DNA of 64,000 bases from a virus. Every line of letters begins with the position of its first letter. The first letter of the stretch is position 1. The DNA lies in IMG/VR virus record IMGVR_UViG_3300022698_000267, positions 37,575 through 101,574 of that record; one strand, written 5' to 3'. The position numbers and the translations under genes are program-made. The notes under the pieces were generated by a model. It worked only from the letters and a program-made list of their open reading frames with translations, was not told where the DNA came from and made no database searches. Below are positions 2,556 through 62,263 of this stretch, piece after piece.

Positions 2556-3662
2556 ATGATGGAGAAACTTCTAAATGTTTTGATTATAGAGGATGATGAA
2601 AAGATTGCTGAGCTGGAGTCTTCGTATCTTTCATCAATTTCAAATGACGTTTTTATAGCCTATACAATGAAAGAGGCTCTGAAGATTATTGATAAGGAGG
2701 ATGATAAAATAGACATTATTGTTCTAGATTTAAATCTTCCAGATAGCAAAGAGATTGATTCTTTCTTTTTGATTAAACAGAAAGTTAGAAAAATACCTAT
2801 TATCGTTGTAAGTGGTATTTCTATAGAATCTATAGCTATTGATGCTGTTAGTCGAGGAGCACAAGATTATATTGTAAAAGAGTACTTGAATGAGTACGTA
2901 TTAATTAAATCTATTAGATATGCCTTAGAAAGACATTCTATTTTTTTAGCAATGGATACGATGGTCGAACAGAAAACTAAAGAAATTGCAATGGCCTCCA
3001 AGTTTTCATTTGAATTAGCTAAGGCAGTAACCTGGATTCTAGAAAATGACATTCTAGACAATGAAGTAGACTATCTGTTAAGAAAATTTGGTTCTATTTT
3101 AGAAGCAGATAGAATGACAGTTTTAAAATTACAAGGAACAGAAAATTCAGTTAATATACAAGATTATGAGGAAGCTTGTAATTATGGCATCACTGATTTT
3201 TGGCAGAAAGATACTGTTGAAACGTGTGAATTCGAAGATTTAAACTTTCCTTGTTTCGATGACAGAAACTATGATATGAATTGGTGGCATAAAGCTTTGG
3301 TTGACAGGAAAATTAAACATATATTGCCAAAAGATACAACTGGACCTACAGTTAATAGATTGATTGTTAAATATGGGAGCAAATCTATCATAGTCGTTCC
3401 AATTTACTTAGCTGATGCTACCCCTTGGGGATTACTAGTTTGTGAACAGTGCAATTATGAAAGACACTGGACAGAGTTGGAAATTAGGAATTTGGGAATT
3501 CTTGCTCCATTAATTTCATTGGTTTATGAAAGAAATGAAAAGAATAAACGATTAGGAGAACTTTCTAAAAGAGCAGATAATGTTCTGTTGGACTTACAAG
3601 AACAACATAGTAAATTCAAGGGTTTAAATGAAGAGATGAGGGAACATGAACGAACTAGATAA
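2556..3662 (+). CDS. response-regulator receiver (CheY-like REC) domain protein with C-terminal GAF-like domain
   Basis: N-term LIIEDDE...DIIVLDLNLPD...PIIVVSG...KEY matches the REC acidic pocket, phospho-acceptor Asp, Ser/Thr and Lys positions; C-terminal 220 aa alpha/beta GAF-like. Confidence 0.55.
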   Translation: MMEKLLNVLIIEDDEKIAELESSYLSSISNDVFIAYTMKEALKIIDKEDDKIDIIVLDLNLPDSKEIDSFFLIKQKVRKIPIIVVSGISIESIAIDAVSRGAQDYIVKEYLNEYVLIKSIRYALERHSIFLAMDTMVEQKTKEIAMASKFSFELAKAVTWILENDILDNEVDYLLRKFGSILEADRMTVLKLQGTENSVNIQDYEEACNYGITDFWQKDTVETCEFEDLNFPCFDDRNYDMNWWHKALVDRKIKHILPKDTTGPTVNRLIVKYGSKSIIVVPIYLADATPWGLLVCEQCNYERHWTELEIRNLGILAPLISLVYERNEKNKRLGELSKRADNVLLDLQEQHSKFKGLNEEMREHERTR

Positions 3663-4254
3663 TGTTGTAAATAAAATTCTTATGATGGTGGAATCCATCA
3701 GTAAGACAACTTCTGAGATTCGCATGTTCATGAATTCCACTAAAGAAACTATGCCAGATACTAGAGATGTTAGAGATATTAAAGATAGTATTGGCAGAAG
3801 TGAAAAAAGTCTGGTTACCCATTTATCTGAATTAGATAACTTGGTTAAAACATTACACTCTTTGCTAAAACTTCCAGAATGTCTTGATGGGATAGAAAAG
3901 AAAACCGAAAGTTTAGGAAGTATATGTCCACAAAATCGTGATTCTTTAGTTAGCATAGAATCTATAGTTATTGGAATATCTTCTGATGTAACTCAATTAA
4001 AGCAAGATTTAGAAAATACTAACAAATCCTTGGATTCATTAAAAGCTTGGGCTCTGCGAAGAGTTCCGGCAATAGTAGGAATAATAGTAGCAATTTTAAT
4101 TGGTATTAGTTATTATGCAACATTTGTAAAACTATCAGATTGGGTAGTAAAATATAATACACAACAAGATTCGGTTTTATTAAACAACGTTAATTCCAGC
4201 CTTGATGAAATAAAAGAAAAAATGGGGATTCAAGATGACAATCAAAAAAACTAG
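3646..4254 (+). CDS. coiled-coil protein with C-terminal transmembrane segment
   Basis: ATG overlapping upstream gene end; heptad-rich; hydrophobic IVGIIVAILIGISYY. Confidence 0.5.
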   Translation: MNELDNVVNKILMMVESISKTTSEIRMFMNSTKETMPDTRDVRDIKDSIGRSEKSLVTHLSELDNLVKTLHSLLKLPECLDGIEKKTESLGSICPQNRDSLVSIESIVIGISSDVTQLKQDLENTNKSLDSLKAWALRRVPAIVGIIVAILIGISYYATFVKLSDWVVKYNTQQDSVLLNNVNSSLDEIKEKMGIQDDNQKN

Positions 4255-5104
4255 TAGACTTGGAAGATACACAGATTCCCTATTTTATTTCAAACAAAAA
4301 CCAGTTAATTGGAATTTTATTGCTGATTCAGGATCTATTGATTTTGTTGTAATAGAATCTGAGAAGGGAGATAATCTAGGAACTTTAAATTCAACATCTT
4401 CACAAAATGTGGATGGGTTGTACTTAGAAGCAACAAAATACTTATCAGCTTCAGAAGGAGACAATGAACAAGTTTCTTTCATCATTGATTTAACTATTAA
4501 TCTTCCAGTAGAGCATCCAGGTTCAGTTCTTAAAACAACTATAGAAAAAATAACTTTTCAAAATCCAATATTAAAAGATTCCTCTGAATATATTAGATCT
4601 TCAATTATAGAATTGGGTGGTGATACTGGAGAATACACATATAATGTAAAGTTCGAAAGAGTACTAGATTCTATAGACGATCTTGATTTGTCTAAAAACA
4701 AAGATAGTGTAGTAACTATTGACTATAGTAAAGATCATCGATGGTCTGTGATCAGTTTATCATTATCACCATTACCAAGAAAAATTCTACCCTATTATTT
4801 TGAAGATACAGTAATTGCTGAAAGGGGGATTGTACAATCATCTACAAATCAAAGCTTCCCTACTATACAACAAAGCAGATTTATCTATCGAGTTCCATTA
4901 ATACAAGATAATATAATATATAATGGTTCTGGGTGCCAAAAAAATTCTATTGTATATCAAGCACCTGCTTTAAGAACCTCTTATGTGCTACTTCGTACCG
5001 GTCCAGTAAGTGAGGACGTTGTGATGGGAGATTTTGTTTCAGGAATGACATCTAGCATCGAATATAGATCAGTAACTTTACAGGAAAGTCTCACTCAGAT
5101 TTAA
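4235..5104 (+). CDS. hypothetical protein (289 aa)
   Basis: ORF with TGGGGA RBS; overlaps upstream stop. Confidence 0.5.
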   Translation: MTIKKTSRLGRYTDSLFYFKQKPVNWNFIADSGSIDFVVIESEKGDNLGTLNSTSSQNVDGLYLEATKYLSASEGDNEQVSFIIDLTINLPVEHPGSVLKTTIEKITFQNPILKDSSEYIRSSIIELGGDTGEYTYNVKFERVLDSIDDLDLSKNKDSVVTIDYSKDHRWSVISLSLSPLPRKILPYYFEDTVIAERGIVQSSTNQSFPTIQQSRFIYRVPLIQDNIIYNGSGCQKNSIVYQAPALRTSYVLLRTGPVSEDVVMGDFVSGMTSSIEYRSVTLQESLTQI

Positions 5105-7820
5105 TTCTTCTAATCCAATTTTCAGGATCAAATTCCTTCTTAGCATATTCTCTTGCAGCAGAACCCATTTTAAGACGAAATTCTGAATCAAGTAATTTTT
5201 TCATTGCTTCGATATGTTCATCAAAATTATTACATAAAAATCCAGTCCCTTCAATAACTCTATCTTTTGGACCAGAATGATTATCAGCTATAACTGGCAA
5301 GCCTGTTGCCATTGCTTCCATAATTACTTTTGGTCCCTGATCATGATATCCTTCTGGAAGATGATACCAAAATACATTTCCAATCTGTAAGTAATCTGGA
5401 ATAGCAGGTTGATTTTTACGATACTGTACAACATTGCTCATCGGTTCTAAGAATGAGGGTGCAGGCATTAATCGAATTAAAGTTTCTGGAAATTCTTTAA
5501 TGATTCTTTGTAATTTCTCTTTAAAATCTTTAGGATATTTAGTATCCCCTTGGCTACTGTGTCTGATAAGTTGCAATTTTGTTTGTGTTTCAATATATGG
5601 TTTCTTATAGAATGGGGTTAAATCAATTGGTGGTGCTAATATGTGTGTATTGGAATTTGGAACTCTTTCTTTAAAGACTGCTTCCAAAGATGAGTTCAAG
5701 AAGATGTAGTCATCAAATTCTTTTGTCCATTCTATTTTTCCAATATGACCAAGTCTAAAATTTACACACATTACTTTTCTATCAGCTTTTACATCTAAGA
5801 AGTAATTGCCAAGTTTTGGAAATTCCCACACATAGTCATTGGTATAAACACAAAGGATGTCACAAGACTTATTAACTTCATTTAAGTCGTTGCTTATTTG
5901 TACTTGATGACTTCCAAGATTATTAAAAGTAGCAGATGGCCTAACTGGTGTTATGTATTGAACATCCCAACCCATTTCAATAAATCTGTTCATTATCCAT
6001 GTGGTAGAACTCTCGGCTCCTCCTTCACCACGTCCATTGAACAGCATTTTCAATAGAGGTTTGTTGGATTTTACTGTTGGTTTTTGTTCTTCGTTTTCTA
6101 TATTTCTAGTCCAGAGTTTACAACGATGTCCACCATTTCTTTTGTGAGCAAATCCTGGTCTGATATGTTTTTCTTGCCATTTGGTTTCCCATTCACGTCC
6201 AGCATCGTGAATAATAATATGCTTGCATAATTTAGCAGCAATTTTTGTTGAGCACTCTCTATTAGATCCACCAGCAGGACCATCGACAAAACCTAAATCA
6301 TAAGTTTTGGTCATGTCCACATCTTTTTCTGTTTTCCCATCCCATTGATGTATATTTAATTTTGGATACTTTTGTCTGAACTTAGTCACCCATTGAGATG
6401 CAGATTCATAAGTTGTAACATCCAGACCCATTTGATTCATTAAACAAGAAGAAAGTCCTGCACCAAATTCTAAAACAGTTTTAATCTTATTCTGTTCAAT
6501 AACATTTTTCATAAAGATCCAGTCTTTATCTGTTATACTAGAACCTCCCCATTTTTCAAATCCCATTTTCTGTGGAAGATCTGCAATTGCATCCAAATTT
6601 ACATCCTTATTCGCTTCAAAAGCTATTGGAGCAGCTATATTTGGTTTAATGAGAACTCTTGGTTGGTTTACTAACAATCTGTTTCCTTCATAGTATCTTT
6701 GGAAAGCATTGCATAAATCTTCTACTCTGATAATATCAACGCATAAGGGAAATTTTTCACCTTTATCATTAGTTACCACATTTTTACAAGATTTGTCTAT
6801 ATCACAACTCCAGCAAGCATTGGTTGTTGCACATGGTAGACAACCATCTGTTGCTAAGTATTGGTGTCCAGGATATCTGGTAAAACGTGCTGGTTCTCTT
6901 GCTCCAGCTATTACAATACAAGGCATGTTAAAAGCTGGAGCAAGGTGCATGTGGAAGCTAATCATTCCAATGGAACCTTCTGCATGATAGAATAGCTTAA
7001 ACAATTTTCTAATTCCATCAGCTCTTCCTTGTGTCTGTCCAACATAATTAATGACATTGTTACCTTTAAGAATTGGGTGTTTATGTCTACCCCCAGATAC
7101 ACCTATTTGCACGAAAGTATGATCAGGAAATTTATTTACAAATTCTTGATATCTTGAAAAAGGATACGTTTTGGTTGTCCAATCTCCTTTCTCTCCAGCA
7201 ACTATAATCCAATAAGGTGGTTGTATCAGAGGAGGTGCACTTATTTCCTTTTCTGTCATCCATATGTCAGGTTTAATTGCCCCTTGTTGTATAGAAACAC
7301 CCAGTTTTTCTTCAATGCTTAATCTAAAAGCATTAGCAAAATGTCTATCATCTCTATTGCTGGCATTGGTTAATCTAGATGGACCAATTTCTACAATCTC
7401 AGCATTATCTAAAGTAACTGATCTATCTAGATTAGGATTATTATCCCATATATGCATTGCTGTAGTGGAAACATTGATAGGCCAATCTGGGAAGGTAGCT
7501 TTAAAATCTCTGATAGCACAAGTCATCATAAGAATATCACCTATGGCTTGTCTATTTTTAAAAACGATTGGTCGAATATTTAATCTGTGTTCCTCAGAGC
7601 TTGCAGCAGAAAATCTTGGATTTAAATTTTCTTCTAAAACAACATCTTGAATCATTTCATTCAAAGCCTCTTTGCTACTTGGAAGCCTTCTATGAATATG
7701 TCCGTCTTGAAATTTTAAAACAATCAAAGATTCTTCCAAATTTCTGGTTGCACAATTTTCTTCTCTAAGAATAGCCGATACTTCTTTAGCAAGTTTTTCT
7801 TTTGTTCTCAGAATTGTCAT
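5091..7820 (-). CDS. multidomain glycosyltransferase: GT9 (heptosyltransferase-like) + class I SAM methyltransferase + GT4/GT-B C-terminal domain
   Basis: GT9-like ILMMTCAIRDF...GMISFHMHLAPAFNMPCIVIAG; MTase motif I VLEFGAGLS ... DLGFVDGP; GT4 signature GYHDQGPKVIMEAMATGLPVIADNHSGP...E (EX7E); TAGGA RBS. Confidence 0.6.
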   Translation of the reverse strand: MTILRTKEKLAKEVSAILREENCATRNLEESLIVLKFQDGHIHRRLPSSKEALNEMIQDVVLEENLNPRFSAASSEEHRLNIRPIVFKNRQAIGDILMMTCAIRDFKATFPDWPINVSTTAMHIWDNNPNLDRSVTLDNAEIVEIGPSRLTNASNRDDRHFANAFRLSIEEKLGVSIQQGAIKPDIWMTEKEISAPPLIQPPYWIIVAGEKGDWTTKTYPFSRYQEFVNKFPDHTFVQIGVSGGRHKHPILKGNNVINYVGQTQGRADGIRKLFKLFYHAEGSIGMISFHMHLAPAFNMPCIVIAGAREPARFTRYPGHQYLATDGCLPCATTNACWSCDIDKSCKNVVTNDKGEKFPLCVDIIRVEDLCNAFQRYYEGNRLLVNQPRVLIKPNIAAPIAFEANKDVNLDAIADLPQKMGFEKWGGSSITDKDWIFMKNVIEQNKIKTVLEFGAGLSSCLMNQMGLDVTTYESASQWVTKFRQKYPKLNIHQWDGKTEKDVDMTKTYDLGFVDGPAGGSNRECSTKIAAKLCKHIIIHDAGREWETKWQEKHIRPGFAHKRNGGHRCKLWTRNIENEEQKPTVKSNKPLLKMLFNGRGEGGAESSTTWIMNRFIEMGWDVQYITPVRPSATFNNLGSHQVQISNDLNEVNKSCDILCVYTNDYVWEFPKLGNYFLDVKADRKVMCVNFRLGHIGKIEWTKEFDDYIFLNSSLEAVFKERVPNSNTHILAPPIDLTPFYKKPYIETQTKLQLIRHSSQGDTKYPKDFKEKLQRIIKEFPETLIRLMPAPSFLEPMSNVVQYRKNQPAIPDYLQIGNVFWYHLPEGYHDQGPKVIMEAMATGLPVIADNHSGPKDRVIEGTGFLCNNFDEHIEAMKKLLDSEFRLKMGSAAREYAKKEFDPENWIRRIKSE

Positions 7821-7829
7821 ATTTTAATC

Positions 7830-8240
7830 CTAGAAAGAATAGATATTTACGAAAGCATTAGGGGAATGTAATTTTAGAACAAATTCATTATTTATCACTT
7901 CCCATTTGTATTTTAACATTATTATAGTATCTTGGGTACTTTCATAGGAACCAAGATTTTCAAAAATAAGTCTTTTCTTCCAACCTATTGGAGACCCACC
8001 TTCATCAACTTTGGTTATAAAAAGAGACGCTCCGGACTGCAATTCGTTTTCAACTATAACTTCCACATTATCGAAGGAATTTCCAGATTTAACAATCATG
8101 TATATACTTCCTGAACTAGATTTTGTAGCTGGATCTTCAGAAAAATTTATATCCATTGTTGTATCTTCTGGATTAAGTGAGGTTAAGATTTGATATGGAG
8201 CAACATTAGTATTAGATAGAAAAATGTTTGTGTTCATCAT
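7830..8240 (-). CDS. hypothetical small protein, paralog of 8237..8644
   Basis: Shares N-terminal NIF(L/I)S, PIGW and YKW motifs with neighbour; ATGA coupling. Confidence 0.5.
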   Translation of the reverse strand: MMNTNIFLSNTNVAPYQILTSLNPEDTTMDINFSEDPATKSSSGSIYMIVKSGNSFDNVEVIVENELQSGASLFITKVDEGGSPIGWKKRLIFENLGSYESTQDTIIMLKYKWEVINNEFVLKLHSPNAFVNIYSF

Positions 8241-28335: not shown

Positions 28336-29049
28336 ATGATCTACGTTTGTGGTGACGTTCACGAATTTAAAGACAAAGATAAACTGTCTTCCAAAAATTG
28401 GCCTGAAGGAAAACTTCTTTCCAAAGATGATTATTTAATAGTTCTTGGAGACATGGGACTAATCTGGGATGCTATATCCTCCCCAAGAGAAAAAAGATTA
28501 ATTGAATGGTATAATCAAAAATCATGGACCACTTTATTCATAGATGGTAACCATGAAAACTTTGATCGTCTATTCTCAGATGAGTTTGGCAATGTACCAA
28601 AATTTGGATCGACTGTCAAACAAATATCCGATTCTATATACTATTTAAAAAGAGGAAATGTATACAAAATAGATAATCGAAAGGTCTTTACCTTTGGAGG
28701 TGGGGAATCCATTGATAAAAATAGAAGATTAACCAGGATTAGTTGGTGGTATCAAGAGATTCCAAATTATCGAGAAATGGATAAAGCTATTGATAAATTG
28801 AAAAATTTTGATAATTGTGTCGATTTTATCCTCACACATGCTTGCTCAAATCTTGCATTTGAGATGTTAATGCAAAGAGCCGACCTAGGATATAAAAGAG
28901 ATGCTGAAAGGGCATTACGGTCCTTCTTAGACTGGATAGAAAGGAATGTGCAATTTAAACAATGGCATTTTGGCCATTATCATGATGATTTTAAATTAGA
29001 TAATAAGCATTTTCTGCATTATGAAAATAAACCAATGCGAATTGTTTAA
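28336..29049 (+). CDS. calcineurin-like metallophosphoesterase
   Basis: CGDVH, LGDMG, GNHEN, GHYH motifs. Confidence 0.65.
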   Translation: MIYVCGDVHEFKDKDKLSSKNWPEGKLLSKDDYLIVLGDMGLIWDAISSPREKRLIEWYNQKSWTTLFIDGNHENFDRLFSDEFGNVPKFGSTVKQISDSIYYLKRGNVYKIDNRKVFTFGGGESIDKNRRLTRISWWYQEIPNYREMDKAIDKLKNFDNCVDFILTHACSNLAFEMLMQRADLGYKRDAERALRSFLDWIERNVQFKQWHFGHYHDDFKLDNKHFLHYENKPMRIV

Positions 29050-35954: not shown

Positions 35955-37671
35955 TGTTGGTCGTTCGAAAGGTACTAAGAAAGTAAGGAAACCAGAAACA
36001 AAAGCTCCAAAACAAGGAAGACCACGAAGGGAAAAGTCAGAACCACCCACCATTTCTCAGAAAGTATCTGGAAAATCTAGATTAATTCCTACGCCGATTT
36101 CAACCTCTTCTGGACATGTCCAAAAGTATTGGGTAGATGTCAATAAAAATCTTAAATCTAAAATTAATACAATAAGAGGTGCTGATAAAGGTAAAGAGGG
36201 TCTTCGGGATGCTAGTTCTTCTGGTATAAATAATATTGTAAAGCAAGCAAGTAAAGATTTTATTGGGCAGGCAAATATTCCAAAGATTGTTGATTCTCTT
36301 AGACCAATACAAGGCAATTACTTTAGAAGATCGATAAAAGAAGAGCCTGATGTTGAAACATTTAGTAAATCTTGGGCCTATAAACCAGGATCTTCTTACT
36401 CTAAAGAGGTTTTTTCTCCTACCGGAAGGAGATCAGGGGTTACTTCTAAACAGGTTCATGACAAAGTCACTAACAAAACTAAAGCACAGAAGCATGTATA
36501 TCGATATGAGCATACTTTAGATACTGGAGAAAGTGTTAAAGAAAGTGCTTTAGAAGTATTTAAAAGACATAATGCCGGAGGAGCAACAGATCAAGAGGTG
36601 GAGGCTTATGCAGCTTTAACTTTAAATATGGCTAAAGATTTAGGTTGGGGAATGCCTGATGCTATTATAGTTCCTCCAAAGACCCTTACACCTGAAGCTA
36701 AAGAGAGAGGAGAATCGTCAAGCCAGAAGGATTCTCAATCTTTACACATTAGGGTTGCAAAGACTCTTTCAGAAAGAGTTCATATGGCTGTAGATAAAAA
36801 GACTGGAAAGCATTATGATGGACTTGAAGGTCCACAGAAGATTGTTAGTGGTGAAGCTGATCATCGACAGATTGCATTTGATCCAGATTTGTTAGATCCA
36901 AAGGATGCGAAAGTTCAAAATATTGCAGGTTGGGCTCATAAAGATGATGTAATTCCTTGGAGTAAAGATAAAGCAGAAAAATTTGAAAGTAACATGCGAC
37001 AGAGAAGTAGTAGATACAGAGTTCCAGCTGCTGAAAATATGTTTCGTCAGGTTATGGGTGTTGGTGGAGTAGATAAAGCTGGAAAACAGAAATTTGATCG
37101 TGGAAGTCCAGAAGAGAGAGCAGCTTTAAAAGATCAACGTGATATGATGGAAATTCAACTTGGTTTGGATGAGAAACAAGGACTGAAGAGTGCTTGGATT
37201 TTAAATCATAATTTAGATACGGGAAGCACATTATTTGCTATGAGTAAAATCATGGAAGAGATGGGCATAAAAACTGAAATCATTGGTTTATTTGATATGA
37301 AGAATTCTACAAATAATCTAAAGTCAGAGTCTACAGAAGCTTTAAGTGGAAAAATTGCACAAGGGAAGGGACAAGCACAAGCTAGAAAGCAGGGAAAGGT
37401 GGAATCTAAAGAAGGTACAGATATTTGGATTACTCAGGATTATTTTAGGAATGTTGAAAAAAGAAATCTTCAAAGAGATGCACTCAAGAAACAAAAAGAA
37501 CTTCAGCAGAAGGCTGCACAACGTGCTGTTAAAAAGATAGAACCAAGAGTACAGAGAAAAGTTGCGTCTATAGATAGTGGTGGTGGAGGAGGTGGAATGA
37601 CTGCTGCACAAAGGCAAAAGTTACAAAGAAAATTGCAGTTCCAAGAAGACAAAAGAAGACGTGGTTTTTAG
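35908..37671 (+). CDS. large basic low-complexity protein; start unresolved (no in-frame ATG for about 230 codons)
   Basis: Frame open from TTG 35908 (AAGGAG 10 nt upstream), overlapping upstream gene in +1 frame; C-terminal GGGGGG. Confidence 0.45.
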   Translation: MLGNIDFYKVLEPITNVGRSKGTKKVRKPETKAPKQGRPRREKSEPPTISQKVSGKSRLIPTPISTSSGHVQKYWVDVNKNLKSKINTIRGADKGKEGLRDASSSGINNIVKQASKDFIGQANIPKIVDSLRPIQGNYFRRSIKEEPDVETFSKSWAYKPGSSYSKEVFSPTGRRSGVTSKQVHDKVTNKTKAQKHVYRYEHTLDTGESVKESALEVFKRHNAGGATDQEVEAYAALTLNMAKDLGWGMPDAIIVPPKTLTPEAKERGESSSQKDSQSLHIRVAKTLSERVHMAVDKKTGKHYDGLEGPQKIVSGEADHRQIAFDPDLLDPKDAKVQNIAGWAHKDDVIPWSKDKAEKFESNMRQRSSRYRVPAAENMFRQVMGVGGVDKAGKQKFDRGSPEERAALKDQRDMMEIQLGLDEKQGLKSAWILNHNLDTGSTLFAMSKIMEEMGIKTEIIGLFDMKNSTNNLKSESTEALSGKIAQGKGQAQARKQGKVESKEGTDIWITQDYFRNVEKRNLQRDALKKQKELQQKAAQRAVKKIEPRVQRKVASIDSGGGGGGMTAAQRQKLQRKLQFQEDKRRRGF

Positions 37672-44358: not shown

Positions 44359-44931
44359 ATGAGAGAGCAATTACCACAATTTGATCTTGGAGCACATATC
44401 AATATCCCTAAAGATAAACAAATTTTTACTGAAGAAGATCTGCCGGCCATCATCCTTACCAATCCGAAGTATCCTCATAATGTTGGAGCTGCTGTTCGTG
44501 GAGCATCATGTTATGGTGCTAAAACAGTAATTTTTACTGGAGATAGACTCCTTACTAGTCTAGCCTTGGTTTCTAAAACCAAGAAGGGTTGGCGACTTCC
44601 AAGAGAGGAGCGAATGAAGGGATACAAAGACGTCAGAATTTTCAATGATGACAAACCATTCAATCGATTTCCAGCAGATACCAGTTTCGTAGCCATTGAG
44701 GTTAAACCAAATTCCGAATGGCTCCCGAATTTTGCACATCCAAATAAAGCAGTTTACATTTTCGGTCCTGAGGATGGTTCAATACCATCAGTTTATTTGC
44801 GTCATTGTCATCGATTTGTCATGATTCCAACTAAGCATTGTTTGAATCTTGCTGTTGCAGTGAATACTGTTCTATACCAAAGGAATTGTTCTTTCGGTGT
44901 TGTAACAGCGGATGATATCGATATGATCTAA
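44359..44931 (+). CDS. SpoU/TrmH-family (SPOUT) RNA 2'-O-methyltransferase
   Basis: LTNPKYPHNVGAAVRGASCYGA (motif I) and VYIFGPEDGSIP...MIPTKHCLNLAVAVNTVLY (motifs II/III). Confidence 0.65.
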   Translation: MREQLPQFDLGAHINIPKDKQIFTEEDLPAIILTNPKYPHNVGAAVRGASCYGAKTVIFTGDRLLTSLALVSKTKKGWRLPREERMKGYKDVRIFNDDKPFNRFPADTSFVAIEVKPNSEWLPNFAHPNKAVYIFGPEDGSIPSVYLRHCHRFVMIPTKHCLNLAVAVNTVLYQRNCSFGVVTADDIDMI

Positions 44932-54036: not shown

Positions 54037-54250
54037 AAGAGAAATATGGTCTGGTTTCTTTGGAATAGATGAATATGGTACTCAGCCTGAATGTGGACAA
54101 GAGATTGAAATAGAAGTAGAAGAGGATTGTATAATCAATGACAAATATGGAATTCGACCCTCATTTTCAGTGGAATGTCCAAAATGTCATGGAACTATAG
54201 CATGGCCTCAACAGTGGGAAGTTGTGGAGAATGATAATGATAATAAATGA
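54011..54250 (+). CDS. Cys-containing hypothetical protein
   Basis: ORF. Confidence 0.35.
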   Translation: MMKLRTVCEREIWSGFFGIDEYGTQPECGQEIEIEVEEDCIINDKYGIRPSFSVECPKCHGTIAWPQQWEVVENDNDNK

Positions 54251-55205
54251 AAAACTAACAGTTAATGAAAAAATAATAGTGTATATGATCTTTGGTTCTC
54301 ATCTATATGGAACTAACACACCTGATTCTGACACAGATTACAAAGGGGTTTTCTTTCCAACTAAAGAACAGATATTTCTTGGAAGAATCCCAAAATCTTA
54401 TTCCACCAGCCCAAAGAAAACAGGACAGGGACAAAAAAATACCTCTGATGATACTGATATAGAAATCTATTCTCTCCACTACTTTTTAAAATTAGCATGT
54501 GAAGGACAAACTGTTGCTATAGACATGCTTCACGCTCCAAGTCATATGCTTTTGGAATCTTCTGAGATTTGGGATTTCATTGTAGGAAATAAACATAGAT
54601 TCTACAGCAGAGATATGGATTCTTTTATTCGCTATGCTAGGAAACAGGCGGCTAAATATGGAATAAAAGGTAGTCGTTTAGCCGTAACCAAAGAATTTAT
54701 AGATTTACTAAATTCTGTTCCAGATGATACAAGACTTTCTGAGTTATGGAATAAACTTCCAGATGGTGAACATTGTTATTTTGTGGAAGATGACCCAAAA
54801 GGAATTGCTCAATATCAAATCTGTGGAAAAAAGTTTCAAGCTACTAGTAAAGCATTGTATGTTAAGAAAATAGTTCAAAGTTTCTATGATCGTTATGGTG
54901 AACGTGCTAAACAGGCTGAATTAAATCAAGGGATTGATTGGAAAGCAGTTTCACATGCTTTAAGAGCCGCTTATCAAACCAGGCAAATTTTAACAGAAGG
55001 AACCATAACTTATCCTCTAAAAGAATCTGGTTTTCTACGGGATGTGAAGCAGGGTTATTTTCACTACACTAAATACGTTGGTCCTGTTTTAGAAGCTCTT
55101 ATGGATGAACTTGAAGAGCTTTCTAAAAATAGTGATCTTCCTGCAACAGCCGATAGAAAGTACTGGGATACCTTCCTCATAGATCTCATCGATGCAACTC
55201 TTTAA
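54237..55205 (+). CDS. polymerase-beta-superfamily nucleotidyltransferase (minimal NTase; RlaP/CD-NTase-like)
   Basis: FGSHLYGTNTPDSDTDYKGVF = hG[GS]x9-13DxD; downstream TVAIDMLHAP third acidic strand; GGAG 7 nt before ATG. Confidence 0.6.
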   Translation: MIINEKLTVNEKIIVYMIFGSHLYGTNTPDSDTDYKGVFFPTKEQIFLGRIPKSYSTSPKKTGQGQKNTSDDTDIEIYSLHYFLKLACEGQTVAIDMLHAPSHMLLESSEIWDFIVGNKHRFYSRDMDSFIRYARKQAAKYGIKGSRLAVTKEFIDLLNSVPDDTRLSELWNKLPDGEHCYFVEDDPKGIAQYQICGKKFQATSKALYVKKIVQSFYDRYGERAKQAELNQGIDWKAVSHALRAAYQTRQILTEGTITYPLKESGFLRDVKQGYFHYTKYVGPVLEALMDELEELSKNSDLPATADRKYWDTFLIDLIDATL

Positions 55206-57734: not shown

Positions 57735-57918
57735 TGTAGAAATCGATTTGGAACTTATACGAAAAAGTCCTGCAGCGTATTTAGTTTCAGATGGTGAAAT
57801 AGAAGAGTGGTTACCAAAATCTCAGGTAGAAGTAGATTCTAATGACGATTTAGAAGAAGGACAAACTTATCTTTTCATTATTCCTGAATGGTTGGCATTT
57901 AACAAGGGTTTCGTATAA
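57727..57918 (+). CDS. hypothetical acidic small protein
   Basis: ATGA overlap. Confidence 0.4.
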   Translation: MSDVEIDLELIRKSPAAYLVSDGEIEEWLPKSQVEVDSNDDLEEGQTYLFIIPEWLAFNKGFV

Positions 57919-57956
57919 TTTCTTAAAGAAGTGCACAGCAATAAAATCCTTTCTTT

Positions 57957-58292
57957 TTATATCTTTATCTTCATAACTTTCATTTTAATTCTAAGACCAT
58001 AACCATCTTCAACATCATCAGGTAGCCATACTTGCACTTCTTGTTTAATTTCTTGAATGATATTTTTTTCATCTACAACAACAGTAACTCTCCATCTTTG
58101 GGAATCAACAGTTAGTGCAGTACCAGGTGTAATTACTCGAATCATATTAGGTCGTAGAGCATGAACAAAACCCAAAGCAGTAGAATCCCATTCTAATCCT
58201 TTTAGAAATTCTAATACTGGAATACTAGTACTACCAAAACGAATACTTTCTGGCATATAGGTTTTCCCTTGCATACTTCTATAATCTTTCAT
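57957..58292 (-). CDS. hypothetical protein
   Basis: AAGGAGAG RBS. Confidence 0.45.
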   Translation of the reverse strand: MKDYRSMQGKTYMPESIRFGSTSIPVLEFLKGLEWDSTALGFVHALRPNMIRVITPGTALTVDSQRWRVTVVVDEKNIIQEIKQEVQVWLPDDVEDGYGLRIKMKVMKIKI

Positions 58293-59415: not shown

Positions 59416-59673
59416 TTAATCCTCCGTTTTAGTAGTAACTGGTTCCCAACAATCACATTGCTTTACAGGAGCAAATTGGTCGTCTCGTTGAACAATATAT
59501 CCCATTTTTCTTTTGATTGGAGCAGGTAGTGGATAACGACAAATACCATCTCTAGTAAATTTTTCGGGGTTTAATTCGGAAATAACTGTTTTCCATTCTG
59601 ACCAGATTGGTTCCCATTTACAAGTCAGACACTTAAACTCAATTTGATTCTTCGATGATTGGGTCTTCTCCAT
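59416..59673 (-). CDS. Cys-rich small protein
   Basis: CLTCKW...CDCW. Confidence 0.4.
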   Translation of the reverse strand: MEKTQSSKNQIEFKCLTCKWEPIWSEWKTVISELNPEKFTRDGICRYPLPAPIKRKMGYIVQRDDQFAPVKQCDCWEPVTTKTED

Positions 59674-60448
59674 TGAAAATAACTCCTACTCTATTGGTTA
59701 CTTTAGAAAATACAGGCATATCTAGTCTTCTAACTTCTGTTCTTTCAATTTCTAGATCAGGATTCTCTCTTGCTTCATGTTTTGGTGGAAGTTTTTCAAT
59801 TTCTTTAGTATCAAACTTCCTAAGGACTGTTCTTTTTTGGAAGTACATTCCTCGTTTAAAATTAGCAGGATAATCATTCCAGTTCACACCTTTTTCAAAT
59901 AACATTTCCTGCATATCTTTTCCATTTTTCTTGTGTAATTGTTTGTGGGAATAGTATACTCTTGCTGCCATTGAAATACTATTTTTGGTAGCATCAAATT
60001 CTCTCCACAAAATAACATTGGCTGCTTCTTGTTTAGTCGGGACTTCCCATGCTCTACAATCGAATAGAGCAACTCTGTGTGCTTTTTCAGGAATCATCTT
60101 ACTTAAATAAGCATTAAAGGTTGCAGTGGTCACAGAAGTTAAAACAGAAACCATTTTCAATATTTTTCTATCAAAAAATATTTGGCTTTTCAAATTGTCA
60201 CTGTAATATACCAGACTAATTTCATCTGATTGTGTATGACCAATACAGGCATTAGTTTCTTTAACAAGAGTATCAACAACAATACCCATTAATTCTGATA
60301 GTCTTACATCATAAGGACGTTCTAATCCTTTTGTAAATTGACTGAAATTTTTACCATCAATTCGTACACAGATTGGAACCATAGGAAGAAACTTTCGTTT
60401 ACTTTCACGTCCTTCATACATTTTCATTCTGTCGCCTAAATCATCCAT
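59639..60448 (-). CDS. Thg1-like protein (tRNA-His guanylyltransferase family 3'-5' polymerase), catalytic residues intact
   Basis: PICVRIDGKNFSQF and IGHTQSDEISLVYY match Thg1 R(L/I)DGRNF and GQSDE metal-binding motifs. Confidence 0.7.
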   Translation of the reverse strand: MDDLGDRMKMYEGRESKRKFLPMVPICVRIDGKNFSQFTKGLERPYDVRLSELMGIVVDTLVKETNACIGHTQSDEISLVYYSDNLKSQIFFDRKILKMVSVLTSVTTATFNAYLSKMIPEKAHRVALFDCRAWEVPTKQEAANVILWREFDATKNSISMAARVYYSHKQLHKKNGKDMQEMLFEKGVNWNDYPANFKRGMYFQKRTVLRKFDTKEIEKLPPKHEARENPDLEIERTEVRRLDMPVFSKVTNRVGVIFNGEDPIIEESN

Positions 60449-60462
60449 TTATCATTTCCCTC

Positions 60463-61281
60463 TTATTTTGTATCAACAATTGGGTCTTCTCCATTGAAAA
60501 TAACTCCTACTCTATTGATTACTTCGGAAAATGGAGGCATGTCTAATCTTCTGACTTCCGTTCTTTCAAATTTCAGATCAGGATCTTTTCTTGCTATGTG
60601 TTTTGGTGGAAGATCTGTAATTTCCTCTTTATTGAACTTTTTGGAAACTTTTCTTCTTTGGAAAAAAGTTCCTCGTTGAAAACTAACAGGATAATCGTTT
60701 TTCCAATCCATATCTTTTTCAAGTAACATTGCTAATCTATCTTCTTCATTCTTTCCCAACAATTGTTTATGTGAGTAATATTGTCTTGCTGCTATTGAAA
60801 TACTTTTTTCAATTGCGACAGTTTCTTCCCATAGAATAATATTGGCTGCCTCTTCCAATGTTGGGACTCCCCAAGCTTTGCAAGAAAACACAGCAACACG
60901 GTGTGCTTTTTCTGGTATTACTTCTGGAAGGTATCTATTAAATGTTGCAGTAGTTACAGAAGAGATGACAGAAATCATTTTCATTATTTTTCTATCGAAA
61001 AATATTTGACCCTTCAAATCGTCATTGTAATAAATCAGATTGATTTCATTTGATTGTATATACCCAATGCAAGCATTAGTTTCTTTGACAATGGCTTCAG
61101 TAACAATCCACATCAAATCTCGCATTCGTGTATCGAAGGGTTTATCTAATCCTTTTGTAACTCGCTTCCAATCTATACCAGTAACTTGTATACAAATTGG
61201 AATCAAGGGCATAAATCTTCGATTACTTTCACTACCTTTGTAAAGTCTCGTTCTTTCAAATAAATCGTCTAATTTGTTCAT
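60463..61281 (-). CDS. Thg1-like paralog with degenerate active site
   Basis: About 45% similar to neighbour; PICIQVTGIDWKRV and IGYIQSNEINLIYY: first Asp to Thr, second Asp to Asn. Confidence 0.65.
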   Translation of the reverse strand: MNKLDDLFERTRLYKGSESNRRFMPLIPICIQVTGIDWKRVTKGLDKPFDTRMRDLMWIVTEAIVKETNACIGYIQSNEINLIYYNDDLKGQIFFDRKIMKMISVISSVTTATFNRYLPEVIPEKAHRVAVFSCKAWGVPTLEEAANIILWEETVAIEKSISIAARQYYSHKQLLGKNEEDRLAMLLEKDMDWKNDYPVSFQRGTFFQRRKVSKKFNKEEITDLPPKHIARKDPDLKFERTEVRRLDMPPFSEVINRVGVIFNGEDPIVDTK

Positions 61282-61290
61282 TTTAATCTC

Positions 61291-61533
61291 CTATAAAATG
61301 TCTTTATTCCAGCCGGGTTTTGTGTTATCAAGTCTTTTATACCAATCTTGATTGGCTAAGGTTATTGATGTACTCTTATTTTCATTCTGATCTTTCATGA
61401 AAGTCAAAGCTCGTAGAACGTAAAGATCTTTTTCTAGATATTCTTGTGCTACGTCAAGATGACAATGCTTTTTTACTACTTCCCTCATTGTCATAGAAAC
61501 TAATAGTCCGTCAATGATTTGTGAAGCATCCAT
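61291..61533 (-). CDS. hypothetical protein
   Basis: AAAGGAAA RBS. Confidence 0.45.
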   Translation of the reverse strand: MDASQIIDGLLVSMTMREVVKKHCHLDVAQEYLEKDLYVLRALTFMKDQNENKSTSITLANQDWYKRLDNTKPGWNKDIL

Positions 61534-61536
61534 TTA

Positions 61537-62022
61537 TCATTTCCTTTCTTTCCAATCAGTTATTTTAAAGGCTCTATCTTCGGTTATGTGAACAGAAAAT
61601 AATTTATCAAAACCTTCATTCATACTTGGTATTTCTAATCTTTGATAGCTGGCTATTACAGCTACTTTTGGAAGATTTTTATCAAGTCGTTTTTCATTTC
61701 TTTTTATACAGATATCTAAATTTGCCTGAAAATAAAAACCAATAATCGGCATTTTTACTTTCTTCAATAAGGGAAAGTATTTTTCTCTTTCTTTTTTAGA
61801 GGGATTGGTATTATCGATAACCATTGGTTGTTCTGTTTCAATACAAAATTGAATTAATTTTGATTCTCGATTTCTGGTTTTCAACATATCCAGATTGACT
61901 CTTATATGCGTATCTGCAAAGTTCTTCTGATAGAAGGTTGATTTTCCGGTGGCTGGGATTCCAATAAAAATTATGTTATTCCTTTTCCAAGAAGCTGTTG
62001 ACTTGTTTGAACTGCTTTCCAT
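61537..62022 (-). CDS. polynucleotide 5'-kinase, T4 Pnk kinase-domain-like, no phosphatase domain
   Basis: Walker A IIFIGIPATGKST, Walker B VIDNTN, lid CIKRNEKRL; GGAGGG RBS. Confidence 0.65.
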   Translation of the reverse strand: MESSSNKSTASWKRNNIIFIGIPATGKSTFYQKNFADTHIRVNLDMLKTRNRESKLIQFCIETEQPMVIDNTNPSKKEREKYFPLLKKVKMPIIGFYFQANLDICIKRNEKRLDKNLPKVAVIASYQRLEIPSMNEGFDKLFSVHITEDRAFKITDWKERK

Positions 62023-62023
62023 T

Positions 62024-62263
62024 TTATATCAAACCCTCCATCTTTAACAAAAATTGACAAGCTTTTAATCTAGTTTTAAATCCATCAGTCCCATTAAGAG
62101 GATGAGGTTTTCTCCACACAGCAGACCATCCAGAATATTTACCTAAATTAAAAACCTGTCCAATTAACTTGCCCCCAATGTAGAAAGCATAATGACTATT
62201 TTGTAACTTCTTAAAACCATAGTCCTCAACTTTTCCATTTACATTTAAAGAATACTTCGACAT
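62024..62263 (-). CDS. hypothetical protein, first gene of kinase/Thg1 operon
   Basis: TGGAGAAAAA RBS. Confidence 0.45.
   Translation of the reverse strand: MSKYSLNVNGKVEDYGFKKLQNSHYAFYIGGKLIGQVFNLGKYSGWSAVWRKPHPLNGTDGFKTRLKACQFLLKMEGLI

Follow-up and report, generated by a model that had tools for sequence, protein, structure and literature searches.

Tandem Thg1-like protein genes in a probable jumbo phage, one of which encodes a candidate pseudoenzyme

INTRODUCTION

To our knowledge, Thg1 and the Thg1-like proteins (TLPs) are the only polymerases that work in the 3′-to-5′ direction. TLP dimers are known for their functional asymmetry, yet every characterized example that we know of is homo-oligomeric, and we are aware of no defined biological role for the bacterial TLPs. 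A stretch of 64,000 nucleotides (nt) from the IMG/VR virus record IMGVR_UViG_3300022698_000267 (positions 37,575 to 101,574 of that record; here referred to, at its full length, as the window) encodes two such proteins side by side. On the minus strand of the window lie two adjoining open reading frames (ORFs), designated TLP copies A (59639..60448) and B (60463..61281). Copy A, of 269 amino acids (aa), has the full set of catalytic residues and is a canonical Thg1-like protein, while copy B, of 272 aa, is a Thg1-like protein whose active site is dismantled, making it a candidate pseudoenzyme.

RESULTS AND DISCUSSION

Copies A and B are adjoining members of the Thg1-like family

An earlier note on this DNA had assigned both genes to the Thg1-like family, and a hidden Markov model search with PF04446 (Thg1 catalytic domain; gathering score of 29.2 bits) bears this out, as A scored 101.9 bits (E = 3e-29) and B 73.9 bits (E = 1.5e-20), both above the gathering score. 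The Thg1 C-terminal model PF14413 (gathering score of 26.3 bits) returned a subthreshold 16.6 bits for A and no match for B. Both copies matched PHROG 4717 (E = 1e-81 for A and 7e-52 for B), and the closest solved structure for both was that of the Bacillus thuringiensis Thg1-like protein, BtTLP (PDB 4KGK; E = 1.3e-41 for A and 5.9e-25 for B). The two proteins share 62% identity across 267 aa, their alignment being interrupted by one gap of one residue (E = 1e-132), and their genes share 75% DNA identity. The AlphaFold2 (AF2) model of B is confident throughout (pLDDT of 96.9 and pTM of 0.90); its Foldseek comparison retrieved BtTLP (4KGM; E = 2e-19; root mean square deviation of 1.5 to 1.7 Å over approximately 205 columns), and its top 32 Foldseek matches in the PDB were all Thg1/TLP chains. 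A palm-like Thg1 fold, as found in BtTLP, is thus predicted for B from the AF2 model and for A from its 62% identity to B and its match to 4KGK, and B belongs to the family on the strength of descent and fold and lacks its catalytic signature.

The similarity of A to the Thg1 proteins of yeast, Candida, and human is limited to E values of 3e-13 to 3e-7. Eukaryotic Thg1 carries a HINNLYN motif for recognition of the tRNA-His anticodon (PMC6471195); this motif is absent from both copies, in which the aligned region reads DATKNSISM (A) and VAIEKSISI (B). Judged by their sequences, A and B are of the bacterial/archaeal TLP type and not eukaryotic Thg1 sensu stricto. BtTLP differs from the pair in two respects, being a homotetramer produced from one gene, where the window holds two genes in tandem, and having a length of 245 aa, compared with approximately 269 aa in the A/B clade, which possesses a longer conserved C-terminal hairpin/extension.

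In the order of transcription, B comes first and A lies downstream, with an intergenic spacer of 14 nt. Each gene is preceded by a Shine-Dalgarno sequence, GGAG for B (61291-61288, 6 nt 5′ of the ATG) and GAGGGA for A (60462-60457, 8 nt upstream). This 14-nt gap and these ribosome-binding sites would allow coupled expression of the two genes, and the tight tandem spacing suggests that their products are used jointly. A scan for promoters and terminators was uninformative, giving promoter-like sites at chance level and no terminators.

As the sequence is metagenome derived, a tandem pair could in principle have arisen as an assembly artifact, for instance by the stitching together of two strain alleles. 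However, the same tandem pair is present on L004, an independent contig of 17 kb from another sample, whose sequence has a single mismatch over 13.5 kb, located outside the two genes; because L004 carries the identical arrangement, the pair reflects neither misassembly nor sequencing error. The two copies, being only 75% identical at the DNA level, are moreover far more divergent than strain variants, and we consider an artifactual origin so improbable that it may be set aside for practical purposes.

The cis-acting active site is lost from copy B

In BtTLP, D30 and D75 are the ligands of the two metals; the D75A substitution dramatically decreased activity, and the metal-coordinating carboxylates are described as essential (PMC3701042). 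Copy A reads VRIDGKNF and TQSDEIS at the corresponding motifs, and all three of its carboxylates, D31, D75, and E76 (aligned with BtTLP D30, D75, and E76), are present, whereas B reads IQVTGIDW and IQSNEIN. The proposal of the earlier note that the gene at 59639 keeps both metal aspartates and that at 60463 has lost both is thus upheld, the latter having T and N at the positions of BtTLP D30 and D75. Because A and B align at 62% identity with only one one-residue gap, the D-to-T and D-to-N replacements are unambiguous.

From the alignment, the loss in B is more extensive than the two aspartates first pointed out and encompasses almost the whole cis active site. The residues documented in the papers on BtTLP and on the Methanosarcina acetivorans TLP (MaTLP) as acting in cis are E12, R28, D30, F34, D75, E76, R131, and R147, and those documented as being supplied in trans by the neighboring subunit are K99′ of BtTLP, R83/K86 of MaTLP, and R93/K96 of yeast Thg1. 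Copy A possesses every documented active-site residue of BtTLP (E12, R28, D30, D75, E76, K99′, R131, and R147). In contrast, B lacks D30, D75, R28, E12, and R147 and has K in place of R131; its carboxylate and cis nucleoside triphosphate (NTP) positions are occupied by T34, N78, Q32, K135, E152, and K15, and only E79 (equivalent to E76) is kept. In A numbering, seven of the eight cis positions are changed in B (E12K, R29Q, D31T, F35W, D75N, R132K, and R149E), and further changes are K9R, D130S, D152V, N156K, and K198Q.

The distribution of these changes is uneven. Conservation of at least 85% is found in 77 alignment columns; A departs from the conserved residue in 3 of these, all outside the documented active-site positions, and B in 17. 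The deviations of B affect 7 of the 8 cis active-site columns against 10 of the 69 other conserved columns (Fisher P = 5.7e-5), and the C-terminal hairpin/extension, with 15 conserved columns, is hit in none, against 17 of 62 in the core. The trans-acting lysines are retained in both proteins (K98/K101 in B and K95/K98 in A), as is, in B, the hairpin motif LPPKHxARxxPDL, with a basic density of 15 K/R/H in 48 residues. A separate peculiarity concerns A, which has H71 four residues before the SDE motif, a feature shared with the related protein P0003, where 206 of 214 homologues have Tyr; B keeps this residue as Y74.

In a rival explanation, B is still an enzyme, with altered chemistry or with altered ligation of metal and nucleotide through alternative acidic residues. 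Near the former site, D37 and E152 are gained and E79 is retained; D37 lies three residues past the lost aspartate, at a position where none of 64 homologues has an acidic residue, E152 takes the place of R149, S77 is kept, and N78 could weakly ligate a metal. Against this stand the behavior of BtTLP D75A and the essential nature of the metal carboxylates (PMC3701042), the loss from B of the residues for positioning the incoming NTP (R29, R149, and E12), and the basic-to-acidic swaps, which should repel the triphosphate. The residue configuration of B also occurs in no other family member, and we therefore judge that B is unlikely to act as a modified enzyme.

Copy B is without a counterpart among its relatives

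Two comparative sets were used to establish how unusual B is. The first was an alignment of 214 sequences, comprising B with 65 homologues from a 5.8-billion-cluster protein collection and 148 representatives from a library at 50% identity. The second comprised 168 other TLP loci, of which 80 were viral (IMG/VR), 80 derived from bacterial or archaeal genomes, and 8 were other loci. Together, these sets hold approximately 380 relatives of B, and no comparable loss of the active site occurs in them. The motifs R.DG..F and SDE are kept in all 65 homologues from the protein collection but not in B, and B is the sole full-length protein among the 214 with wholesale loss of the active site; each of R29Q, D130S, and R149E occurs in B alone. 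The other deviants in this set are a few partial sequences and the TLP representative P0181 (257 aa), in which D31N, at the first metal aspartate, is the sole change in an otherwise intact residue set; P0181 may be another inactive variant or may reflect a sequencing error.

The 168 other loci without exception keep both aspartates, E76, and the cis NTP residues E12, R29, R132, and R149; a second TLP within 6 kb occurs at none of them. A TLP is present in 164 GenBank phage records, of which the approximately 100 listed are all single copy; one of the 164 has two TLP-matching places and was not identified among those listed. In these approximately 100 of 164 records and in the 80 IMG/VR loci, the phage TLP is represented by one copy with an intact active site, and no tandem or degenerate copy is seen. 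The TLPs of the large phages 201phi2-1, fHe-Yen9-04, and CcrColossus are phage borne, as is the pair described here, but single copy, and phage TLPs have been interpreted as restoring 5′-end nucleotides as part of RNA repair repertoires in which RlaP, kinases, and ligases are found as well (PMC7824862).

Approximately 15 billion proteins and the contig collections yielded no B-like protein, and B-specific peptides had no match when used to scan metagenome contigs. In the searchable literature, likewise, we found neither a pseudoenzyme nor a heteromer described for Thg1/TLP. The pair is, therefore, confined to a single phage lineage, in which it was seen in two samples, and is not conserved across lineages.

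Copy B arose by a recent duplication and appears to be maintained

In phylogenetic trees, B falls in a clade with A, P0003, and P0004, and in the neighbor-joining tree it is the sister of A in 50% of bootstraps, with a branch approximately 1.4 to 2 times that of A. More informative than this tree are the synonymous distances. The synonymous divergence (dS) between A and B is 0.77, compared with approximately 1.9 for either copy against P0003, the nearest outgroup. Similarly, at positions where all three genes encode the same residue, 72% of codons are identical between A and B versus 56 to 60% between either copy and P0003, whose contigs hold a single TLP. Because the synonymous divergence of A and B is below that to P0003, the duplication is taken to be specific to this phage lineage.

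Such a young and solitary duplicate might simply be redundant, having lost its activity and, with it, any function, and be heading for loss. The singleton lineage and the absence of B-like proteins elsewhere are compatible with this explanation, as is the faster evolution of B, seen both in its longer branch and in its 17 deviations at conserved columns against 3 in A. A three-taxon method assigned an omega of 0.38 to the B branch, with a bootstrap confidence interval (CI) of 0.07 to 2.6 that includes 1 and so weighs against the maintenance of B; saturation of dS to the outgroup makes this branch-specific estimate noisy. Inference of selection was, therefore, based on the pairwise omega and on simulations of ORF survival. 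The pairwise dN/dS between A and B is 0.32 (bootstrap 95% CI of 0.22 to 0.47), an interval which excludes the value of approximately 0.55 expected if B were neutral and A evolved at the background omega of approximately 0.11. In neutral simulations of a 269-codon gene, with indels ignored, the ORF stayed open in fewer than 1% of cases when substitutions reached 0.1 per site and in none of 5,000 when they reached 0.37 per site. In contrast, the ORF of B is intact over 272 codons and retains its Shine-Dalgarno sequence, with no frame-disrupting indel, despite 38% protein and 25% DNA divergence from A. Its substitutions are, furthermore, concentrated in the active site and spare the C-terminal region. 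On the basis of the dN/dS value, the ORF survival simulations, and the confident BtTLP-like model, B is regarded as folded and maintained, as opposed to a pseudogene in decay, and a functionless duplicate seems to us an improbable explanation.

A proposed heteromer of A and B

The retention of a folded but apparently dead paralogue beside an intact one may be understood from the architecture of the MaTLP-tRNA complex. MaTLP binds tRNA with a 4:2 stoichiometry, one tRNA per dimer, and the two subunits of the dimer have distinct roles: the 5′ end sits in the active site of molecule A, and molecule B provides the trans-acting residues and clamps the tRNA elbow by means of a β-hairpin (PMC4820378). 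The statement of the earlier note that not all Thg1 subunits catalyze at once finds support in this structure (PMC4820378). In MaTLP (PDB 5AXM/5AXN) the subunits are identical and either can catalyze, whereas the asymmetry of the present pair would be fixed by the genes; B keeps the same classes of residue that the noncatalytic MaTLP subunit supplies (R83, K86, and the hairpin) and loses the cis class.

We propose that the TLP gene was duplicated in place, following which the downstream copy, A, would have remained the canonical enzyme and the upstream copy, B, would have lost metal and NTP binding, becoming dead for the canonical reaction while being retained by selection as a folded protein. 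Copy B would then most probably coassemble with A in mixed dimers or tetramers, in the role played by molecule B of the TLP homodimers, supplying the trans lysines that would complete the NTP site of A and the β-hairpin that would hold the tRNA elbow. Such A:B pairing would fix a dimer asymmetry that is normally stochastic. The main argument for this arrangement, an indirect one, is that B has lost the cis class and kept the trans lysines and the hairpin, as a dedicated molecule B would, and we consider the chances evenly balanced that B is a dedicated noncatalytic partner of A in a heteromer. A more specific and more tentative version, to which we give somewhat less than even credence, is that A and B form an obligate heterodimer, which would represent the first natural pseudoenzyme subunit of a 3′-5′ polymerase, with catalysis (A) and the trans-lysine and elbow-clamp functions (B) genetically separated, and with polarized 5′-end repair following the action of a dedicated 5′-kinase. 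The substrate specificity of such a heterodimer may be altered, with RNAs cut by host defense nucleases possibly serving as substrates.

Several observations weigh against a heteromer. Copy A keeps all of the trans residues and a hairpin of its own, is complete for a homo-oligomer, and has no visible need of B. In B, the N-terminal helix motif LGDRMKxYE, which is highly conserved in the family, is degenerate, and part of this helix region forms the dimer interface in BtTLP. As the pair occurs in one lineage, there is also no comparative support for a conserved heteromer.

Retention of the lysines and the hairpin, moreover, would fit a stand-alone RNA-binding protein equally well. Such a B would be an independent, homo-oligomeric, noncatalytic RNA binder that shields, sequesters, or senses tRNA 5′ ends or acceptor stems or that acts as a decoy for a host tRNA nuclease. 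This possibility is in keeping with the full conservation of the fold, the basic hairpin, and the C-terminal region in a protein whose catalytic residues are gone, and with the purifying selection on B. On the other hand, K98 and K101 would be without obvious purpose in the absence of a neighboring active site, although they could bind RNA phosphates, and the tight tandem spacing with A suggests joint use. A stand-alone role for B is, in our estimation, rather unlikely, while deserving more weight than either a functionless duplicate or an altered enzyme.

The proposed heteromer would have well-known counterparts among tRNA enzymes composed of a catalytic subunit and a degenerate paralogue, such as the Trm61/Trm6 m1A58 methyltransferase, ADAT2/ADAT3, and the archaeal α2-β2 splicing endonuclease. 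The logic of these pairs is the same, in that the gene of a homo-oligomer is duplicated, one paralogue remains catalytic, and the other, an obligate partner, keeps the fold and RNA binding. A and B share with them the presence of one member which is without catalytic residues and under purifying selection. In contrast to the A/B pair, which is recent (dS of approximately 0.8), confined to one phage lineage, and known from sequence, the Trm61/Trm6-type pairs are ancient, widespread, and biochemically proven.

A 5′-kinase adjoins the TLP genes and recurs beside bacterial TLPs

Upstream of B, the window encodes a 161-aa protein (61537..62022, minus strand) which, by homology, is a polynucleotide 5′-kinase-type P-loop kinase, whose substrate may be RNA, DNA, or another molecule. 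It matches PF13671 (AAA_33) with 46.5 bits against a cutoff of 27 and PHROG 505 (polynucleotide kinase), and its best PDB matches are to the kinase domain of mammalian PNKP (E = 5.5e-10), with the P-loop GIPATGKST and the aspartate of VNLD aligned. Unlike mammalian PNKP, T4 Pnk, and bacterial Pnkp, the window kinase is a stand-alone protein without a fused phosphatase or ligase, and it is paired with a TLP, not with a ligase or Hen1.

This association extends to bacteria. In a bacterial metagenome-assembled genome (L008), a kinase 46% identical to that of the window (E = 2e-51) overlaps the start of the TLP gene, and a kinase homologue directly abuts the TLP gene in 11 of the 80 bacterial loci as well as in L008. 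In the 11 loci, which derive from Myxococcota, Planctomycetota, Lentisphaerota, and Alphaproteobacteria, the kinase lies upstream in 8 and downstream in 3; with L008 included, it is immediately upstream in L008, L095, L098, L101, L103, L111, L113, L123, and L131 and immediately downstream in L156, L157, and L159. No third gene is conserved with the kinase-TLP pair across these loci. The recurrence supports the view of kinase-TLP as a conserved two-gene cassette for 5′-end repair in bacteria. A 2019 review of TLPs makes no mention of any kinase. On L001, the contig of the closest relative, a 161-aa ORF upstream of the TLP had been taken for the same kinase because of its length, and direct comparison revealed no similarity.

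TLPs require a 5′-phosphate or 5′-triphosphate end (PMC3701042, PMC4820378), and, given this requirement, a pathway in which a kinase and then a TLP act on 5′-OH ends would be the natural reading of the pair. The kinase would convert 5′-OH ends left by host ribonucleases to 5′-phosphates; the TLP would activate the 5′-phosphate with ATP or GTP and then restore the nucleotides lost from the 5′ end, with the 3′ strand of the acceptor stem serving as the template. With a 5′-kinase adjacent and the kinase-TLP pair recurring in bacteria, 5′-end RNA repair is the best reading of the locus. The earlier note had gone further and suggested tRNA 5′-end repair during infection; the repair element of that suggestion is favored by the same two observations, while tRNA as the substrate and infection as the time of action are what we infer.

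A further candidate repair protein is encoded 4.4 kb from TLP-A on the plus strand (54222..55205), namely, an RlaP-family Pol-β nucleotidyltransferase, which matches PF10127 with 50.3 bits against a cutoff of 23 and PHROG 388 with an E value of 8e-94. RlaP adjoins a TLP or lies within 6 kb of one at other loci (L001-3, L006, L052/L056, L086, and L146). On L001, the TLP-RlaP adjacency is the only part of the neighborhood to recur, and there RlaP comes immediately after the TLP, in the same orientation, whereas in the window the two are on opposite strands. As no RNA ligase was found among approximately 40 window ORFs scanned, the ligase association from which RlaP takes its name does not extend to the window. 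Approximately 5 kb upstream of the TLP-RlaP pair of L001 lies a pair of genes (3166-5008) encoding a resolvase and an OrfB_IS605/Cas12f-like TnpB.

Other genes of the cluster and features of the window

The kinase and TLP genes are part of a tight minus-strand cluster, the first gene of which encodes a 79-aa protein (62024..62263) and abuts the kinase start; Pfam and PHROG searches with this protein gave no family match. An 80-aa ORF (61291..61533), tightly packed and in the same direction, separates the kinase gene from that of TLP-B; it has no Pfam or PHROG match and no homologue at the 168 other TLP loci. An 85-aa ORF (59416..59673, minus strand), to which Pfam and PHROG searches assigned no function, overlaps the 3′ end of the TLP-A gene by 35 nt and was also called as a gene on L004. 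A convergent strand switch is located at 57918-57957, where the plus-strand genes reach approximately 57918 and the minus-strand TLP cluster ends at 57957.

The element is probably a jumbo phage, as judged by its contig of 273.5 kb, dense short ORFs, phage lysozyme, PHROG matches, and tRNA cluster and by the fact that the TLPs nearest to its own belong to huge phages; the window showed no structural genes.

At 22440-23400, the plus strand carries clustered tRNAs and tRNA-like elements. Among them are a tRNA (22440-22509) that has a GAU anticodon loop, in which the T-arm is shortened, and which was missed by ARAGORN; a 74-nt "tRNA-Leu(CAA)" (22551-22624) without the long variable arm that is normal for bacterial tRNA-Leu; and a tRNA-like element (23170-23315) in which an 88-nt insert replaces the anticodon arm. 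Y-RNA-like (YrlA) matches were obtained at 22679-22806 and 23266-23380, at a subthreshold 37 and 34 bits, respectively (gathering score of 69), and a search for a Ro/TROVE protein near them found none.

Further RNA-related functions may be specified by two plus-strand genes. One encodes a SpoU-family RNA 2′-O-methyltransferase (44359-44931; PF00588, E = 1e-15), a further RNA-modifying enzyme of the region, and the other a calcineurin-like metallophosphoesterase (28336-29049; PF00149), a possible end-healing phosphoesterase whose homologue on L001 (57 to 69% identity) is apparently split into two ORFs (6828-7106 and 7546-7902). The plus strand also encodes a response-regulator receiver domain fused to a GAF domain (2556-3662), an MreB/actin-like protein (20436-21458; PF06723, E = 4e-20), and, at 24377-27007, a 534-aa ORF with a weak HisK-N-like (ASK signalosome) match, followed by an ARPP-1/ARPP-2 domain protein (E = 5e-19); the last two genes may possibly constitute a conflict-system module.

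CONCLUSIONS

If the proposed heteromer is real, a dead paralogue with only the trans-acting and RNA-clamping parts would separate in nature the two roles of the TLP subunits and would also be a ready tool with which to dissect or engineer a 3′-5′ polymerase. The kinase-TLP cassette, for its part, predicts that 5′-OH-terminated, 5′-truncated RNAs are the natural substrates of bacterial TLPs, and a candidate source of such 5′-OH RNAs is the action of metal-independent ribonucleases in phage-host conflict. The bacterial kinase-TLP cassette may prove to be a more general lead than the A/B pair itself.

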